A stretch of 64,000 nt of DNA from a virus (IMGVR_UViG_3300027741_000030:51656-115655), one strand, 5' to 3'. Counted from the stretch's first letter, positions 21,215-28,708 are shown. The notes: generated by a model not told the origin, from the sequence alone. Made by a program: numbers and translations.

Positions 21215-24200
21215 ATGGCAGATAATTTAATCACGACCAATATTACCGCCAATGCAGACTTTACGAGTTTAAAAACTCAATTAGCTGCAGTTACTGCCCA
21301 ACTCATAAAACTTCAAGAAACAACTGCTGGAACAAACGCAAAACTTGCAAATCAAATTGCAGTAATGAACAAGTCTTTTGCAGAGACTATGCGTTCTACT
21401 GGACAGTTTTCCTCACATTTTGTTTCTTTAACTTCAGACGTAGAAAAGTTTGGAAAGAATTTAGATCGTGGCCGTCTTAAATTAAATGATTACTATAATA
21501 CTTGGAACGGCCACACTAAAAAAACAAGCAATTTAATTAAAGATCTTGCAAAACAGCAAGTAATGCTTGAACAATCGATTATTCAACCATTAGGCAAAAA
21601 TGCACAAGGTCTAATGCAATACAATATAATGGTTGCAAAAGGTCTTGATGAAATAAAAAACAAAACAGCTTTAGCTAGACAAGAAGCTGCAATTATGAAT
21701 AAGGTCATGCAAGACGGAGCTGGCCAATTAATTAACTGGGGTAAAAATACACAGTGGGCAGGCCGTCAGCTTACTGTAGGACTTACAGTGCCTCTTGTTG
21801 CATTTGGCGCAGCAGCACAGAAAGCATTTAGAGAAGCAGATGCAGAGCTTGTAAGATTAACAAAAGTTTATGGCGGATTAGCAGCAACTTCATCTCAAGA
21901 TTTAGCGCAAGTTAGAAAAGATGTAAGCGCAACTGCAAAAGAAATTGCTAGCTCATATGGAGTTGCTTATAAAGATACAATATCTTTAGCTGCAGATTTA
22001 GCAGCAACAGGTAAACAAGGAAATGATTTACTTCAAGCAACTCAACAAACAACAAGGCTTGCAGTACTTGGTGAAGTAGACAGACAAGATGCTATGAAAG
22101 CAACTCTTGCTATTCAAAATGCATTTAAACAAAATACAGATCAGCTAACAGAATCAATTGATTTTCTTAACGCAGTTGAAAACCAAACATCTACAAGCCT
22201 TGCAGATTTAACAGAGGCAATTCCAAAAGCTGGTCCAGTAATTAAATCTTTAGGCGGAGATGTAAAAGATTTAGCTTTGTATCTTACAGCAATGAAAGAA
22301 GGAGGAGTTAATGCTGCAGAAGGTGCAAATGCAATTAAATCAGCAATGGCTTCTCTTATTAATCCAACAAAGGTTGCAACAGAGATGTTTGCTTCTTTTG
22401 GAATTGATCTTAGGGGAATAGTAACAAAAGACGCTGGAGATTTAACACAAACAATTTTAGATTTGCAATCAGCATTAGATGGGTTAAATCCATTAGATAA
22501 ATCAAGAGCAATTGAACAACTTTTTGGCAAATTTCAATTTGCTAGAATGTCAGCGTTATTTGAAAACTTAGGAAAATCTGGATCACAAACTCTTCAAGTT
22601 ATGGATCTTATGAAAGCAAGTGCATCAGACCTTGCTAATATATCTTCACGAGAATTAAAGTTGATGACAGAATCAGCATCAGGACAGTTTAAGCGAGCCT
22701 GGGCTTCTGTTCAGGCAGACCTAGCTTCTACTGGAGAACAATTCTTAAGAGTAAGTACAAAAGTATTAAATGTTGTAGATAAAATAATAAAGTTTTTTGA
22801 AAACTTACCAAAACCAATTAAAACATTTTTAAATGTTTTGGGAGGAATTACAGCAGTTACTGGACCAATAATCATGCTTACTGGTGTTTTAGGAAATTTC
22901 CTTGGATACATAATTAAAGGTATATTTCATTTAAAGCAATTAGGAAAAGGTGGGCAAGGGTTTAAACTTCTTACACCTGAAATTATGGCAGCGGAAGCTG
23001 CAGCAAAAGGACTTGCAACATCATTTTATAGTGATTCAGAAGCAACAATTGTTTTATCTAATGCTGTAAATACACTTGCAGAATCATTTGCTAATCTTGA
23101 AATGAAAGCAAATGCTGCAAAAGTTGCTGTTCAACCAGCAGTTACAACTGTTGCAGGAAATGCTGTAGCACCAGGAGTTTTTGGACAACGAGTAGTTGAT
23201 AAAAATAATCCATTAATTGGTGCACCTTATTCAAGAGATATGTCACATTTGATTCCAACTCAGATGCCACAGGCGGGAACAATTTTTGGAACAGTGCCAG
23301 GAGCTGGACCAGTAAACGTTAGAATTGGAAAAAATCCTCAAGCCTACATGGATCAGGATATGCCAAAGATTCCTGGGGTCACTTCAGTAAATAATGTTTC
23401 CACTGGAATTGTTGCTTCAGAAGCTGCAAAATGGCATGCAATGACTGCAGCAATTGCAATGCAATCAGAAGCAGAAATTAAATTACTTAAAACAGAAGTT
23501 ATGGCTACAGGAACTGTAACTGAAAGTTTATCTCAATCTTACCAAGCACTTCTCCCACAATTTTCTGAAATCACACAATTAGCAGCAGCTGAAACAAAAG
23601 CAATTGTTGCAGATTTACAAGCAAGTAAAATAACTGTTGATGAAGCTAGAGCAAAAGTTATTCAAATGAATGCAACTGTTGAAGCAATGCTTGCAGAAAC
23701 TGCAGCAGCCACAGCAGCTGGAATGGGAAGAACTGTTAATTTAACAACCGTTCCACTTACATCACAGCCAGTAGTTGATCCAGCTACAGGAAAATCAAAC
23801 ATGAAAGAAATGTTCCATAAAGGAACAACAAAAGAAATTGCAGATAGAATTGCAAGAGCTTTAGGCGGAGTTAGAACTTCAGGTGCTGGATATAACATTC
23901 ATACAACAAAGCCACAGCAATTAAACTCTGGAGGAAGAGTATATAATCCATCAAGAGACGGTAACATAGTCCCTGGAGACACATCAATTAACTATGATAA
24001 TACTCCAGCAGTTTTGCAAGAGGGCGGATATGTATTAAATCAAGGCGCTTCAAAAAATAATCCAGACTTAGTTAGTCTTGCAAAAAATTCCCGCAACTCT
24101 GGAGGAAAAATTGTACCAGCTGTAGTAACTCCAGGCGAAACTTATTTCCCTCCAGAAGTTGCTGAGACAATAATGCCTACACTTGAAAAAGCTAACAAAG

Positions 24201-27200
24201 GTTCAAAAATATCATTAAGAAATGTCGGCGGATATATAGGTGGTCTTGTAAAAAGATCAAAGAAGAACTATGGAATTAGTTTTGAAGATTCAGAGCAGAT
24301 GCGTAGATATGTTGAATATCATACATCATCAAATTTTGATCAGTATGCAAAAGCGGCTTCAATTGCAAATGATGCAGAAGCATTAGTTTCTTTAGGATTA
24401 AATCCAGAACAAGCTGTAAAAGAGGCTGACCGCTGGTTTGAGGAAAGATACAATAAGGCTTTAGAAAATAACAATGGCATATTTAAGCAATCAGAATTTG
24501 ATAAAGTTACACAAGAAAGTTATTCTGATTTACAAAAACATTTAAAGAAAAGATACGGTATAACAAAACCTATCTCAAAAGAATGGCGCACACTTTCAAA
24601 GTCTGGAAGCCAGCAAATGAAAACTCAAAGCTGGAGATATGTACGTGGAAAAGTTGATTATACAATAAGAAATAAAATATTTGATTTACTTGGAGAACCA
24701 GGAAAGAGATTAAAAAAAGAAGCCGTTTTTGCAAATCAAGAACGAGCACACTACACCTCTGGAAGCACACAGGCTAAGTCTGGATTTAATTATTTAGGAC
24801 AGGCAGTAATACAGCCTTGGGAAATTAATCAGCTTGCTCACGAGCTTTCAAGATATGGAGTTATACAAAATTCATTTTCTTTGTCATCTGCTGAGAATAA
24901 ACAGCAGTTTGATAGAATTGCAAAAAATTTAGGGTACTTAGATCACGATGACATGTTGGAAAGCTTAAAGGGCAAAAAGAGCTCTCCAGCAAAACCTCCT
25001 AGAGTATTTAAAGTTGAAAATGGAATGACAGCGCCATTGCGTAAAATGGTTTCTTCTTCCCCTGCACAATTTAAAAATTACATGAGATTGCCAGCCGTAG
25101 CAAGAATGCTCGCTATGTCTGGAGCAAGATTTAATGCTGGAGGAGCAGTTGGTGGCTCAGTTCGCAAAGATAAGCATAATTATGGAAAACTCCCAGCATG
25201 GATAATCAGAAATGAAAAGATCAAAAACTTAGCCAACACTGATCCAGCACATGGTGTTTTACAAATTGGTAAATATCACCCAGCTTTGCATGTTAGAAAT
25301 CAATATGTTGCTCCTTCTATTAGATATAAGAGTAACTATGAACCATTTACATGGGATAAAGGACCTCAAGCTGGCCAAACAGTATATTCTCCAAGAAGAA
25401 CTGGTGGGGTGCCAGCATTTGAAACTGGAACAATAGAAACAAGAGCAAAGACAGCTTTATACAATTACATGCAAGGTGATTATCAAGCAATTAATGATCC
25501 AGCAGTCCAAACATACCTTTCAACTTTAAGAACTAAATTTACAGGAACACTTCATAGAGGAGTTAGAAACATATCTAGCCTTCCTCCTGTAATTAGTAAT
25601 CTAATTAAAGAAGGCAAATGGGATGAGCTTGTAGGTAAAGAATTTATTATGCGTCGCTCATCATGGAGCACAAATAAAGATACCGCAGAAGGATTTGGAC
25701 AATTACAGCTTATTGCAAATGTAAAAAATAGAAATGCTGTTCCAGCTTCTGAAATATTTCCAAACTTAACATTTCAATCTCCACAGGGACCAGTACCAGT
25801 AAACGAAAGTGAAGTTTACATGGGAGGTAAGTTTAAAGTTATTGCAGCTGATAAAAATAGATTAAAGCTACAAGCAATATATGATGCTGCTCGTGAAAAT
25901 GGCGGACCAGTAAATGCTGGAAGACCTTATCTTGTTGGAGAAAAGGGTCCAGAAATCTTTGTTCCAAAAAATGCTGGAGGTGTAATTCCAGGATATAACG
26001 TTGGCGGAATGGTAAAGTCAATGATTATGAGCACACTCGGATACACGGGTGGATCGATGCTTGGAGGAATGACAGGTTTGCCAGGCGGAGCAATGATTGG
26101 CGGAATGCTTGGCTCAATGTTTGGAATGGGCGGAGACTCATCTATGGGAAGAAGTCCAAGGCCACAACCAGAAGGCCCACGTATGGAAAATGGAATGTTT
26201 TCAAAAAACTTTTCTATGGAGCATTTTACAAAACCAATAGGTCCAGCAGGAAAACTTGCAGATAAATTAAATCTGCTTGGATTATCAGGTGGAAGATTTT
26301 CTAATGTTTTAGCAAAAATAGGACCACTTCTTGCAAGACTTCCAATGGCATTTAATCCAGTTGGGGTTGCAATTGCAGCAGTAACAGCAGCTACAGTTCT
26401 CGGGGTTAAAAGATGGAAAGACCATAATGAACATTTAAGAATTGGAATGCTTCAATATAGTTTAACTGCAGAAGCAGCAAAAAAAGCTGGAGTAAAATTT
26501 ACTGATTACAATACAAAGTTAGCAGACACTGTTGCAAATATTAAAGCAATAAGAGAAAGAAATCAACTTCTTTATGAAAGCATGGAGTCTGCTGGAATGC
26601 CAATAGAAATGACTATTGAACAATATAAAAAATTGCGTAAAGAAGTTAAAGATTCTTATGCAGATCAAATTAAATTAATTAACCAAACAAAGGGTGAAGG
26701 AAATACAAGAAAGCTTGCAGAAGACCTTAAAATTGAATTAATGGCAGCAGGCATGTCAGCAGAAGATGCAACAAAGAAAATTTGGGCAATGTTTAAACTT
26801 TCTGAAAAAGCAAAAGACGCTGCAACATTTACACTAGGAAACTCTGGCTTTAATAAAATAAAAGATGGCCAATCTGTAGCAGTCAGTGCAATATCTAGAT
26901 ACAACGCTGCTGCAAAAGAAGGCGGGCGTGAAGGCGCAGGTGCAGTACAAACTGGACTAACATCAATAGATGCTGGCATACAAGACATGATTGCTAGAAG
27001 TAAAAAAGCAGCAAAAGCAGATAAGTCTGGAAACACAAAAGTATTAACTGAATATCAGGCACAAGAAGCTATGCTTAATAAATTAAATTCTCTTGAGTCA
27101 TCAAAAGCAAGATTAACAAAAGCAACAAGAGATGAAATGATTAAGCAAAACCCAGAACTTAAAAAGATTATTAATCCACTAGACACAATTGTAAGTCTAT

Positions 27201-28708
27201 GGGGAAAGATGAATCTTGCAGCAAAAGGCTTTACAGGTAATTTAGAAGCTCTAGGTCCAAAAGCAGTTGAAACATTATCTAAGATTGCTGATGCTGTTTC
27301 TGAAGCAACAGCTTCTTCAAACAAAACTGGACTATTAAAAGATCAATATGCAATGCTTGATAAATTAACTGCACAACAAAAGGCGTTAATGAAGGCTGCA
27401 AAAGGACAAAGCGTAGCACAGCAAATAAGTACTAAAGATCAACTTAAAGCTCTTCAGGCACAAATTGATGCAAACAATAAACTTGCGGATGCAAGATTAA
27501 AAGCTCTTGATGCTGCAAAACAAGAAGGAGATATAGCAAGAGAAATTGCTAAGAAGCAAGCAGAGTATGATGCTGCCTTAGCAACAGGTAATTCAGCTGC
27601 AGCACAACAGGCAAGCTTAGATATTCAAGGGCTTCAATCAGATCAGCAATATCTTGCACAGAAAAAAGCAATTGAAGATGCGCTTAAATTACAAAATGCA
27701 CCACTTGAAGCAAAAATAAAAGCAATTAACGAAGGTCAAGAAAAACTTTCAAATCAAGCAGCCCTTGCAGCTGAAAGTTTAGGAAAAATTAATGAAAAGA
27801 TAGCAACACAAAAACAAAAAATTGATGACGTTAATTCAGCAATGACAACATTTAGAATAAATGCAATCGCAGCTGGCAAAACTCTTGAAGAGTATGCTTT
27901 GACCAAAGAAGGAAAACAAGATGCTGCAGCAGTTGTAGGTGCATCAAAGACAGCGGGAATAAAAGTGCCTACCAGTGGCGGCGGTCATTACGAAGGAAGC
28001 ACATTTGTTCCAGACAAAAAGAATGTTGGATCACAAGCACTAGACTTAGTCAATCAGACTGAAGATGCTGTAGCCTCAGCTCTATCCTCAAAGGGCATTC
28101 AAATGGGTAGCGGAGACATCTACATTGTTGGAAAAGATGGAAAGAAAACAAAAGTTGATGCAACTTCATATCAAGATGGTAAAAAATCTAGTGCAGGTAT
28201 AAACAAATCCATGGTAAATGGAAAAGAAAAACTATCTGTTCAAGCATTGCAATTAACTGCAGAAAAAATACCTACAAAACAGGGAACAGAATTTTTTATT
28301 AAAGACCAAAAATACAAGATTACTGGGCCAGTGGGTTCTAACGGATATCTTCCAATTGAAAAAGCTGGATACGGAACAATGAATCTAAATCCAAGAATTC
28401 CTACAATTGTTGGAGACAGAGGCCCAGAGCTAGCATTTGGCGGAATGATTATTCCTAATATGGCTAAGGTGCCATTTTCTTCTCCAAGATATGATGTAAA
28501 TAAAGCAAATCTTAGATTTGAATCAATGCGTGATAGTTCAAGCGGAAGCGTAATTAATCTTACTCAAAACATTTATCCTTCAGACGGAATGAATACAGAA
28601 GCATTTGTAAGACAAGTTGTTCAGCAAACAAAGCAAGCTATTGGACAAGATACAAAATTAAATGCTAAAATGGTAGGAAATTCAATGAATGTGAGTATTA
28701 GATCATGA
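21215..28708 (+). CDS. Tape measure protein with inserted ADP-ribosyltransferase-like domain
   Basis: 2497 aa following the chaperones; TP901-like core (LTVGLTVPL, AENQTSTSLxDL); GGxV...YLVGEKGPE motifs; LHRG/SSWST/ESE at 25550-25813. Confidence 0.9.
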   Translation: MADNLITTNITANADFTSLKTQLAAVTAQLIKLQETTAGTNAKLANQIAVMNKSFAETMRSTGQFSSHFVSLTSDVEKFGKNLDRGRLKLNDYYNTWNGHTKKTSNLIKDLAKQQVMLEQSIIQPLGKNAQGLMQYNIMVAKGLDEIKNKTALARQEAAIMNKVMQDGAGQLINWGKNTQWAGRQLTVGLTVPLVAFGAAAQKAFREADAELVRLTKVYGGLAATSSQDLAQVRKDVSATAKEIASSYGVAYKDTISLAADLAATGKQGNDLLQATQQTTRLAVLGEVDRQDAMKATLAIQNAFKQNTDQLTESIDFLNAVENQTSTSLADLTEAIPKAGPVIKSLGGDVKDLALYLTAMKEGGVNAAEGANAIKSAMASLINPTKVATEMFASFGIDLRGIVTKDAGDLTQTILDLQSALDGLNPLDKSRAIEQLFGKFQFARMSALFENLGKSGSQTLQVMDLMKASASDLANISSRELKLMTESASGQFKRAWASVQADLASTGEQFLRVSTKVLNVVDKIIKFFENLPKPIKTFLNVLGGITAVTGPIIMLTGVLGNFLGYIIKGIFHLKQLGKGGQGFKLLTPEIMAAEAAAKGLATSFYSDSEATIVLSNAVNTLAESFANLEMKANAAKVAVQPAVTTVAGNAVAPGVFGQRVVDKNNPLIGAPYSRDMSHLIPTQMPQAGTIFGTVPGAGPVNVRIGKNPQAYMDQDMPKIPGVTSVNNVSTGIVASEAAKWHAMTAAIAMQSEAEIKLLKTEVMATGTVTESLSQSYQALLPQFSEITQLAAAETKAIVADLQASKITVDEARAKVIQMNATVEAMLAETAAATAAGMGRTVNLTTVPLTSQPVVDPATGKSNMKEMFHKGTTKEIADRIARALGGVRTSGAGYNIHTTKPQQLNSGGRVYNPSRDGNIVPGDTSINYDNTPAVLQEGGYVLNQGASKNNPDLVSLAKNSRNSGGKIVPAVVTPGETYFPPEVAETIMPTLEKANKGSKISLRNVGGYIGGLVKRSKKNYGISFEDSEQMRRYVEYHTSSNFDQYAKAASIANDAEALVSLGLNPEQAVKEADRWFEERYNKALENNNGIFKQSEFDKVTQESYSDLQKHLKKRYGITKPISKEWRTLSKSGSQQMKTQSWRYVRGKVDYTIRNKIFDLLGEPGKRLKKEAVFANQERAHYTSGSTQAKSGFNYLGQAVIQPWEINQLAHELSRYGVIQNSFSLSSAENKQQFDRIAKNLGYLDHDDMLESLKGKKSSPAKPPRVFKVENGMTAPLRKMVSSSPAQFKNYMRLPAVARMLAMSGARFNAGGAVGGSVRKDKHNYGKLPAWIIRNEKIKNLANTDPAHGVLQIGKYHPALHVRNQYVAPSIRYKSNYEPFTWDKGPQAGQTVYSPRRTGGVPAFETGTIETRAKTALYNYMQGDYQAINDPAVQTYLSTLRTKFTGTLHRGVRNISSLPPVISNLIKEGKWDELVGKEFIMRRSSWSTNKDTAEGFGQLQLIANVKNRNAVPASEIFPNLTFQSPQGPVPVNESEVYMGGKFKVIAADKNRLKLQAIYDAARENGGPVNAGRPYLVGEKGPEIFVPKNAGGVIPGYNVGGMVKSMIMSTLGYTGGSMLGGMTGLPGGAMIGGMLGSMFGMGGDSSMGRSPRPQPEGPRMENGMFSKNFSMEHFTKPIGPAGKLADKLNLLGLSGGRFSNVLAKIGPLLARLPMAFNPVGVAIAAVTAATVLGVKRWKDHNEHLRIGMLQYSLTAEAAKKAGVKFTDYNTKLADTVANIKAIRERNQLLYESMESAGMPIEMTIEQYKKLRKEVKDSYADQIKLINQTKGEGNTRKLAEDLKIELMAAGMSAEDATKKIWAMFKLSEKAKDAATFTLGNSGFNKIKDGQSVAVSAISRYNAAAKEGGREGAGAVQTGLTSIDAGIQDMIARSKKAAKADKSGNTKVLTEYQAQEAMLNKLNSLESSKARLTKATRDEMIKQNPELKKIINPLDTIVSLWGKMNLAAKGFTGNLEALGPKAVETLSKIADAVSEATASSNKTGLLKDQYAMLDKLTAQQKALMKAAKGQSVAQQISTKDQLKALQAQIDANNKLADARLKALDAAKQEGDIAREIAKKQAEYDAALATGNSAAAQQASLDIQGLQSDQQYLAQKKAIEDALKLQNAPLEAKIKAINEGQEKLSNQAALAAESLGKINEKIATQKQKIDDVNSAMTTFRINAIAAGKTLEEYALTKEGKQDAAAVVGASKTAGIKVPTSGGGHYEGSTFVPDKKNVGSQALDLVNQTEDAVASALSSKGIQMGSGDIYIVGKDGKKTKVDATSYQDGKKSSAGINKSMVNGKEKLSVQALQLTAEKIPTKQGTEFFIKDQKYKITGPVGSNGYLPIEKAGYGTMNLNPRIPTIVGDRGPELAFGGMIIPNMAKVPFSSPRYDVNKANLRFESMRDSSSGSVINLTQNIYPSDGMNTEAFVRQVVQQTKQAIGQDTKLNAKMVGNSMNVSIRS

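Follow-up and report, generated by a model that had tools for sequence, protein, structure and literature searches.

Tape measure proteins (TMPs) of phage tails are usually viewed as passive rulers that now and then bear a wall hydrolase. The TMP encoded within a 64,000-nucleotide stretch of a viral genome (IMGVR_UViG_3300027741_000030:51656-115655; hereafter the window, from whose first letter all nucleotide positions are counted) raises the question of what else such a ruler may carry. An initial annotation had proposed that repeated N-x-GG linkers divide the middle of this protein into cassette-like cargo domains, one of them an ADP-ribosyltransferase (ART). From the present analysis, the middle of the TMP may be considered a bay with two slots, the contents of which differ by exchange even where the phages are nearly identical in other respects, and one of these contents is, by its signature, an intact protein-modifying enzyme. 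No description of fenced, swappable TMP cassettes was found in the literature searched.

The gene is a single open reading frame (ORF) of 2497 codons (21215-28708) in a single-contig phage genome of 115,655 bp; this gene and every feature described within it lie on the plus strand. By every test made, the 2497-aa product is a phage tail TMP of the TP901 / PhageMin_Tail type. PF10145 (PhageMin_Tail) matches residues 239-438 above the gathering score (99.6 bits against a cut-off of 33.2, E = 2.9e-28) and TMP families of PHROGs cover residues 38-848 (phrog_10030, TMP, E = 5.8e-120). The gene is positioned between tail tube and chaperone genes on one side and distal tail genes on the other, and a canonical GE.GPE-type motif is present near the C-terminus of the protein.

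Module exchange between constant flanks

The variable region begins after a constant block, flank A (residues 861-1002, 23795-24220), that is 37-99% identical in all relatives compared. It is followed by linker L1 (NVGGYIGGLVKRSKKNYG, residues 1003-1020, 24221-24274), the slot 1 cargo (insert 1, residues 1021-1306, 24275-25132), linker L2 (NAGGAVGGSVRKDKHNYG, residues 1307-1324, 25133-25186), the slot 2 cargo (residues 1325-1555, 25187-25879), and F3, an element that resembles the end of other TMPs (residues 1556-1594, 25880-25996).

A search of residues 880-1650 against 5.8 billion proteins identified 213 TMP-sized homologs, of which 120 were retrieved for a comparison of the flanks. A relative is encoded by 133 IMG/VR contigs and the lineage amounts to approximately 200 metagenomic TMPs. 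The 120 homologs, all of similar length, retain both flank A and F3, which are 458-841 aa apart. In nearly all relatives flank A ends in ...GG...NYG, and unrelated families follow directly after that glycine. This is the arrangement that the initial annotation had anticipated, namely constant flanks with differing and often unrelated modules between NYG linkers; the inserts are not invariant.

The TMPs were cut at the linkers and the pieces were clustered with 65% coverage of the longer piece. This produced 27 piece families, the split being made with a regular expression that overlooks variant linkers (0 linkers in 23 of 209 TMPs and one in 56 of 209). Slot 1 is occupied by F1 (83 members, insert 1 of the window among them), F4, F5, F6, F7, F8, F10, F11, F13-F17 or singletons, and slot 2 by either F0, which is the ART (87 members), or F2, a module of 350-490 aa termed M2 (75 members). 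Profile-profile comparison merges {F1, F13, F16}, {F4, F11} and {F8, F10, F14}, while F5, F6, F7, F15, F0 and F2 stay unrelated. After this comparison there are at least seven unrelated superfamilies in slot 1 and two families in slot 2. Mixed combinations occur, with F1, F5, F8 and F13 each found beside both the ART and M2, and the occupants of the two slots assort independently of one another.

A tree built from the N-terminal 940 aa of 149 TMPs requires at least 27 changes of slot-1 superfamily (the minimum for ten states is 9; shuffled labels give 65) and at least 5 changes of slot-2 type, with the reservation that it is a FastTree tree only and that recombination in the N-terminal part could inflate the count. 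Near-identical pairs are independent of the tree. Unrelated slot-1 modules are carried by TMPs that are 99.4% (L042/L043 vs L065), 99.0% (L006-8 vs L009) and 98.9% (P0108 vs P0130) identical over the 940 residues upstream, and slot-1 swaps as a whole were seen between TMPs that are 95-99.7% identical upstream.

At the DNA level, the homology of three independent pairs stops and resumes within three residues or fewer of the linker edges. For L006 and L009, a homology of 97% ends one residue past the ...NKKLNYG of L1 and restarts at the YG of L2. For L042 and L065, it ends at 99.7% after ...GGPGNTSG and is 99.5% from exactly the first G of an L2 variant, GGM[VI]PGKFA. The homology of L068 and L080 breaks at the linker edges likewise. 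A megablast comparison of the window with L001 gave 94.8% identity from residue 1 to residue 1325, one past the NYG of L2, and the homology is back at residue 1400 with 89%. Since homology breaks at the linkers in these pairs, the linkers are fences that form the edges of the exchanged units. Within the lineage, the slots are units of exchange: an entire module gives way to an unrelated one, and the joins lie at the fences. The swapping of unrelated modules bears out part of the polymorphic effector array that the initial annotation had envisaged; the term effector, for its part, draws on a single module, the ART with its catalytic signature, as the other modules have no assignable function.

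A short non-homologous tract was also observed downstream of F3 and the third linker (L043 aa 1823-1914 vs L065 aa 1806-1902) in TMPs that are otherwise 96-99% identical, and in many relatives F3 is separated from the next conserved block by an additional 300-440 residues. Together they suggest a third slot that would be empty in the window TMP.

The NYG linkers

L1 and L2 are alike at 10 of 18 residues and their local alignment reaches z = 9 against shuffles, in agreement with the shared pattern NxGGxxGGxVxxxKxNYG that had been noted for these two long versions. As a regular expression (N.GG..GG.V...K.NYG), the pattern occurs only at L1 and L2 in all ORFs of the 115,655-bp genome, with 0.06 matches expected. 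Relatives diverge right after the YG of L1, and L2 precedes slot 2 in most of them. Most TMPs of the lineage contain three linkers, located near residues 1005, 1260-1320 and 1590-1640. A logo derived from 546 distinct instances in relatives reads N-x-G-G-x-[LI]-G-G-x-[VI]-x-x-G-K-x-N-Y-G, with GG at 70%, V/I at 65% and K/R at 59% and nothing conserved past the final G; the Y/F-G end is at 100% by construction as the regular expression demanded it. The asparagine of NYG is present in approximately 36% of instances. The core of the fence may be written GG-x-[VI]-x-x-x-[KR]-x-x-[YF]-G, with N.GG..GG.V...K.NYG as its long form. A distant clade has GG.IPG.FAQ.LFGGG in place of NYG. A further hexapeptide, G-x-[VI]-P-N-[FY], occurs in fewer than half of the TMPs of the family, mostly once, at the end of F3 before the third linker.

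The recurrence of N-x-GG motifs that first drew attention to this region is not a matter of composition. All six reported motifs were found (residues 904, 961, 1003, 1307, 1586 and 1595), compared to a mean of 1.05 in composition-matched shuffles (P ~0.0008), and all six fall within residues 900-1610, where 0.41 are expected. As delimiters of cassettes they need to be separated, for the six motifs belong to three different elements and not to one class. Variable sequence is fenced only by L1, L2 and a third copy that has decayed, such that two or three of the six motifs are fences. LNSGGRV and RNSGGKI are inside flank A, which is never a cassette boundary in any relative compared and fences nothing. 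RENGGPV is the start of F3. YNVGGMV is the decayed third NYG linker (L3, YNVGGMVKSMIMSTLGYTG, residues 1595-1612, 25997-26050), at which position relatives have GG.V..GK.NYG. An origin of flank A as a diverged duplicate of F3 is not claimed (alignment z = 1.8, P = 0.07).

The DNA of L1 and L2 is alike at only 31 of 54 nucleotides, and at the conserved glycine, lysine or arginine, and tyrosine positions of the linkers the relatives use a mixture of synonymous codons. What is under selection is therefore the peptide; the conservation of the linkers is one of amino acids and not of nucleotides. This bears directly on the linkers as recombination sites, one of the roles suggested by the initial annotation, in the sense of short conserved DNA sequences whose main function is to promote the exchange of cassettes, homologous or site-specific. 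Exchange boundaries do coincide with linkers in four comparisons. However, the same boundaries are also expected if only in-frame joins of autonomous domains survive selection, linkers with so little nucleotide identity and such mixed codons are poor homologous substrates, and the long conserved flanks (flank A, the ART core and F3) would offer far better homology for crossing over. A role as recombination sites is thus very improbable.

In both AlphaFold2 (AF2) models that were calculated, the linkers and F3 are disordered (predicted local distance difference test score, pLDDT = 24-33; 24-32 for L1). We infer that the fences are flexible joints that keep the modules autonomous and interchangeable. 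The same disorder, which leaves the linkers exposed in the models, would also suit programmed cleavage sites. According to such an explanation the TMP is an injected polyprotein that is split at the NYG linkers into separate free proteins, in the virion or in the host, whether a protease of host or phage is responsible or the TMP cleaves itself in an assembly-dependent manner. Conservation breaks off sharply at Y/F-G and no position beyond is conserved, which would suit a site recognised from its N-terminal side, and it is the peptide that is conserved and not the DNA. Cleavage of a TMP beside an embedded enzyme is known in T5 and has been reported for lambda (PMC10038345), and processing into units has been proposed for polyvalent proteins (PMC5512222). 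Against these points, no peptidase domain was found in the TMP, the linker motif is nowhere else in the phage proteome and so is not a site shared with substrates of the head protease, Asn-cyclisation cannot be general with asparagine in only about a third of the instances (~36%), and NYG itself is replaced in the distant clade. On balance, a polyprotein of this kind is doubtful. Two specific routes were rejected: Asn-cyclisation self-cleavage at N|Y on the frequency of the asparagine, and a site common to head-protease substrates on the absence of the motif from all other ORFs of the genome.

The ADP-ribosyltransferase of slot 2

The annotation of the second insert as an ART was upheld by structure. 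A Foldseek search of the slot 2 model (core pLDDT = 65-88) against the PDB returned ARTs with a probability of 1.00 and E-values of 1.5e-5 to 3e-4. A total of 77 PDB chains were matched at E <= 0.001 and all top hits listed were ARTs, among them the C3 exoenzymes (C3bot), Certhrax, the ARTs of Serratia and Listeria toxin/immunity pairs, HopU1, VIP2 and iota Ia. The catalytic residues of the R/S-x-S/E-x-E type are intact in the window (R1448, S1483-x-S1485 and E1531-x-E1533). Across 80 unique members of the family, R1448 and S1483 are each retained in 80 of 80, and E1531 and E1533 in 79 of 80. The sequence is too diverged for the Pfam model; PF03496 gave 12.1 bits (E = 0.12), below its cut-off of 23.4. 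Judged by its fold and its catalytic residues, slot 2 of the window is an R-S-E-type ART with predicted activity.

The N-terminal part of the ART module alternates between sub-modules, one type being short (KLPAWIIRNEK) and others longer (...FAKYPNGQMP...), as seen when aa 1329-1447 of L001 are compared with residues 1326-1399 of the window TMP. The ART core is 63-80% identical despite these differing sub-modules, such that slot 2 is itself mosaic. In one relative (L009:7216-8070) the E-x-E region of the ART has been deleted and the module is fused straight to F3, and may be considered decayed cargo. A 399-aa protein, P0168, joins an ART module to an F3-like motif and to a C-terminal tail of the canonical TMP type; either a TMP gene has been split here, or this is an ART that stands alone and has acquired the end of a TMP.

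The alternative occupant of slot 2, M2, gave no match in a profile search of the PDB. Its clusters in the protein atlas are unnamed, and a weak LepB_N/Sca4 lead was not used.

The globular domain of slot 1

The sequences that follow L1 and L2 have an aromatic content of 10.5% and 9.5%, respectively, compared to approximately 5% in the Ala-rich ruler parts, and alanine is lower. Both regions model as folded domains, and the earlier description of globular inserts unlike the rest of the TMP holds for each. In the case of insert 1, which forms a superfamily with F13 and F16, structure prediction gave a conserved globular domain and not a TMP helix. The AF2 model (overall pLDDT = 64) presents a helical bundle (pLDDT ~90) and a beta-beta-alpha element bearing His1179 (24749-24751) and Asn1205 (24827-24829). 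The two strands (residues 1175-1179 and 1197-1201) and the helix (residues 1202-1213) have a local pLDDT of 65-81; the value falls to less than 50 in the loop that connects the strands. In an alignment of 12 sequences that are 19-94% identical to the window copy, an NDA motif and a (D/E)RAH motif, the latter containing His1179, are retained; (D/E)RAH with its His1179 is nearly invariant and Asn1205 is invariant.

The beta-beta-alpha topology is the one that had been guessed when a weak likeness to a His-Me-finger nuclease was first noted. The stretch (D/E)RAH...NYLGQAVIQP.EIN may be likened to the DRGH...N motif of Serratia/EndoG-type nucleases, a tentative lead that is backed by no tool. Neither a nuclease nor any other credible match to insert 1 was identified with Pfam, a PDB profile search, Foldseek against the PDB, a wide VIA-align search (best Z = 4.5) or BFVD, and a small motif within a larger domain can escape whole-model searches of this type. 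Insert 1 is best described as a conserved globular domain without a known fold that has a nuclease-like motif in its predicted structure; the His-Me nuclease idea is unproven.

From the two inserts, it may be asked if the modules need an activity at all. They could be interchangeable structural or envelope-acting filler in a region that varies by escape from host defences or receptors that recognise the TMP, with the linkers as packing or chaperone-binding elements of the tail. Slot sizes are constrained, most modules are without an enzyme signature, and the fences are similar to the last part of the canonical TMP C-terminal motif, itself a structural element. Folded domains of 250 aa in three copies are also too big for the lumen of a siphophage tube. 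The retention of the ART catalytic residues in 79-80 of 80 members indicates, to the contrary, selection for enzyme activity, and the His/Asn pair of insert 1 is kept across 20-45% identity. Replacement by unrelated folds is seen and not fast divergence. Wall-acting domains, moreover, are located elsewhere: longer relatives have CHAP and LysM or OmpA domains in the C-terminal half of the TMP, near residues 2500-2900 (2724-2919 in P0053 and 2514-2606 in P0058). As these peptidoglycan-acting domains lie far downstream, the bay is not the usual insertion site of a wall hydrolase. With both sides considered, filler is an improbable explanation for the exchanged modules.

The internal copy of the C-terminal motif

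F3 (GGPV..GRPYLVGEKGPEIFVP...GGVIPGY) is the sole part of the region that matches cultured phages. A tblastn search with residues 881-1662 produced matches to the F3 motif only, in Ralstonia, Vibrio, Roseobacter, cyanobacterial and Pseudoalteromonas phages. In an exhaustive HMMER search with the same residues as a 782-aa query, 3046 representative proteins were identified, of which 41 reached an E-value of 1e-30; below the top ~60, nearly all matches were to the F3 motif alone. In the cultured phages the motif is 50-65 aa from the TMP C-terminus, as exemplified by Roseobacter phage CRP-701 and Pseudoalteromonas phage C7.

In the window TMP the GE.GPE-type motif recurs at the protein's own end (IVGDRGPELAFGGMIIP, ~residues 2396-2415, 28400-28459), at the same position as in the TMPs of cultured phages. 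The alignment of F3 with this C-terminal copy has z = 4.1. Given the location of the motif near the TMP C-terminus in cultured phages and the second copy at the true end of the window TMP, F3 is an internal copy of the canonical end motif. The 2497-aa TMP thus looks like one unit, comprised of a ruler, cargo and an end motif, that has been extended by a second ruler and end motif.

A proposed working of the cargo bay

The explanation that we favour, and which we hold to be reasonably probable, is that the middle of the TMP is a two-slot cargo bay, that the cargo is delivered with the TMP, that the ART acts in the host and that the fences serve as flexible joints. An N-terminal ruler and constant block (residues 1-1002) are followed by the two slots (residues 1021-1306 and 1325-1555), each fenced by a flexible, glycine-rich peptide, and the internal copy of the canonical TMP C-terminal motif closes the bay, with a glycine zipper and a transmembrane-like segment next. 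The modules, being free of cysteine, may ride unfolded or extended inside the tail tube. At infection they would exit together with the TMP, the glycine-zipper and hydrophobic part would insert into the membrane, and the modules would refold inside the host, where the ART may modify a host protein early in infection in the manner of T4 Alt. The fences might also be cut, thereby freeing the modules; this additional step is considered rather unlikely because no peptidase was seen, the asparagine is not conserved and the motif is absent from other virion proteins.

The lack of cysteine, the glycine zipper and the transmembrane-like segment provide a context for translocation that is consistent with delivery. 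Several observations weigh on the other side. There are about ten module types and only one has a recognisable function; Pfam matched none of ten representative alternative modules drawn from ten piece families. Slot-1 modules are fairly uniform in size (~200-320 aa), which also fits a structural or length-keeping role. No peptidase family was identified by Pfam at E <= 1 in the whole TMP or its segments. The structure models are of modest confidence (pLDDT = 64 and 52), the count of slot changes carries the possible inflation mentioned above, and the TMP gene had no megablast match among 50,697 phage records and hence no cultured relative.

A delivery of the modules would give siphophages a new route by which ready-made proteins are brought into the cell before gene expression. 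The at least ten uncharacterised module families would then be candidates for host-takeover or anti-defence proteins, and the fence peptide would serve as a simple sequence rule with which to find metagenomic cargo and to build chimeric TMPs. A bolder version extends this to TMPs in general as a programmable delivery vehicle: the fence GG.[VI]...[KR]..[YF]G would be derived from the canonical end motif and would act both as a plug-in site and as a processing code that frees effectors (the ART, the nuclease-like domain and many others) in the host cytoplasm. We consider this version unlikely, and somewhat more so than cleavage at the fences. If it is true, phages possess an injected-polyprotein system with a large unexplored repertoire of effectors.

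Comparison with known systems

T4 Alt is an ART that is packaged in the virion head and injected with the DNA. By analogy, the window TMP may present a virion-borne R-S-E-type ART whose expected role is the modification of host proteins as infection begins. T4 Alt, however, is a separate head-packaged protein whereas the ART of the window is an internal module of a TMP, and there is no detectable sequence relationship between them beyond the fold class.

Polymorphic toxins (CdiA with its VENN motif and Rhs with its DPxGL motif) and MARTX toxins have a delivery part that is constant and, beyond a short and conserved junction peptide, modules that can be interchanged, the junction being where recombination boundaries fall. 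As in polymorphic toxins, the modules of the TMP are exchanged at a conserved junction peptide. Unlike them, the modules are internal and not C-terminal tips, the carrier is a virion protein, and no immunity gene is present, the genes that come next being those of tail proteins. MARTX toxins have their own cysteine protease for release and none was seen in the window TMP.

Polyvalent proteins are large proteins of phages and conjugative elements with variable and unrelated domains, including ARTs, for which entry alongside the DNA and processing into units have been proposed; some were shown to be in the phage head and they often contain a metallopeptidase (MPTase) for processing (Iyer et al. 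2017; PMC5512222). The window TMP is alike in that unrelated domains are present in variable combinations within one large phage protein. It differs in the absence of a peptidase family at E <= 1 and in the carrier, which is a TMP and not a head- or DNA-associated protein. The text of the paper on polyvalent proteins does not mention tape measure proteins and does not describe a repeated fence peptide (PMC5512222). In summary of these two comparisons, the TMP resembles polyvalent proteins and those polymorphic toxins that have a junction motif, yet it fails the defining features of both because it has no processing peptidase, no head-associated carrier, no C-terminal tip and no immunity gene.

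Enzymes have been found before in TMPs. The TMP of Thermus phage P23-45 (gp96) is fused to a virion RNA polymerase that transcribes the pre-early phage genes (PMC10770324), T5 pb2 is cleaved after R1127 during tail morphogenesis, between a hydrophobic segment and the motif of a metallopeptidase (PMC10038345), and the TMP of mycobacteriophage TM4 contains a peptidoglycan hydrolase motif (PMC1796659). Like these three, the window TMP would be a tail ruler that carries an enzyme acting on or in the host, and like T5 pb2, where the enzyme part is beside a hydrophobic stretch, its cargo adjoins a glycine zipper and a hydrophobic stretch. Unlike these three, in which single domains are fixed, there are two slots, a repeated fence peptide and unrelated modules that are exchanged at the fences. 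The cargo differs as well, with an ART and domains without an assignable function in place of a wall hydrolase or an RNA polymerase.

Further features of the gene and its setting

A glycine-zipper stretch with seven GxxxG repeats (residues 1608-1645, 26036-26149) begins just after F3, and a hydrophobic, transmembrane-like segment follows (residues 1705-1731, 26327-26407; Kyte-Doolittle 19-residue mean up to 1.78). The two are thus directly downstream of the cargo bay. A further hydrophobic stretch is present at residues 537-571 (22823-22927). Glycine zippers are common to the C-terminal regions of TMPs and to the type VI secretion system effector Tde1, and have been linked to membrane permeabilisation and translocation; in Tde1, they are required for permeabilising the membrane and for entering the target cell (PMC10240207). 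The cysteine count, 0 in the window TMP, has a median of 0 and a maximum of 6 in 217 relatives of more than 2000 aa (family P0002-P0256).

Upstream of the TMP gene are genes for a head protease, a capsid protein, an adaptor and an Ig-bearing, tail-tube-like protein, and two small chaperone-like ORFs. Downstream are genes for minor tail and tail proteins.

A scan of 185,579 species genomes returned L083 (CAIYXB010000128.1) as its only match, a 1.5-kb contig within a metagenome-assembled genome from Lake Loclat. This lone contig suggests a freshwater origin.

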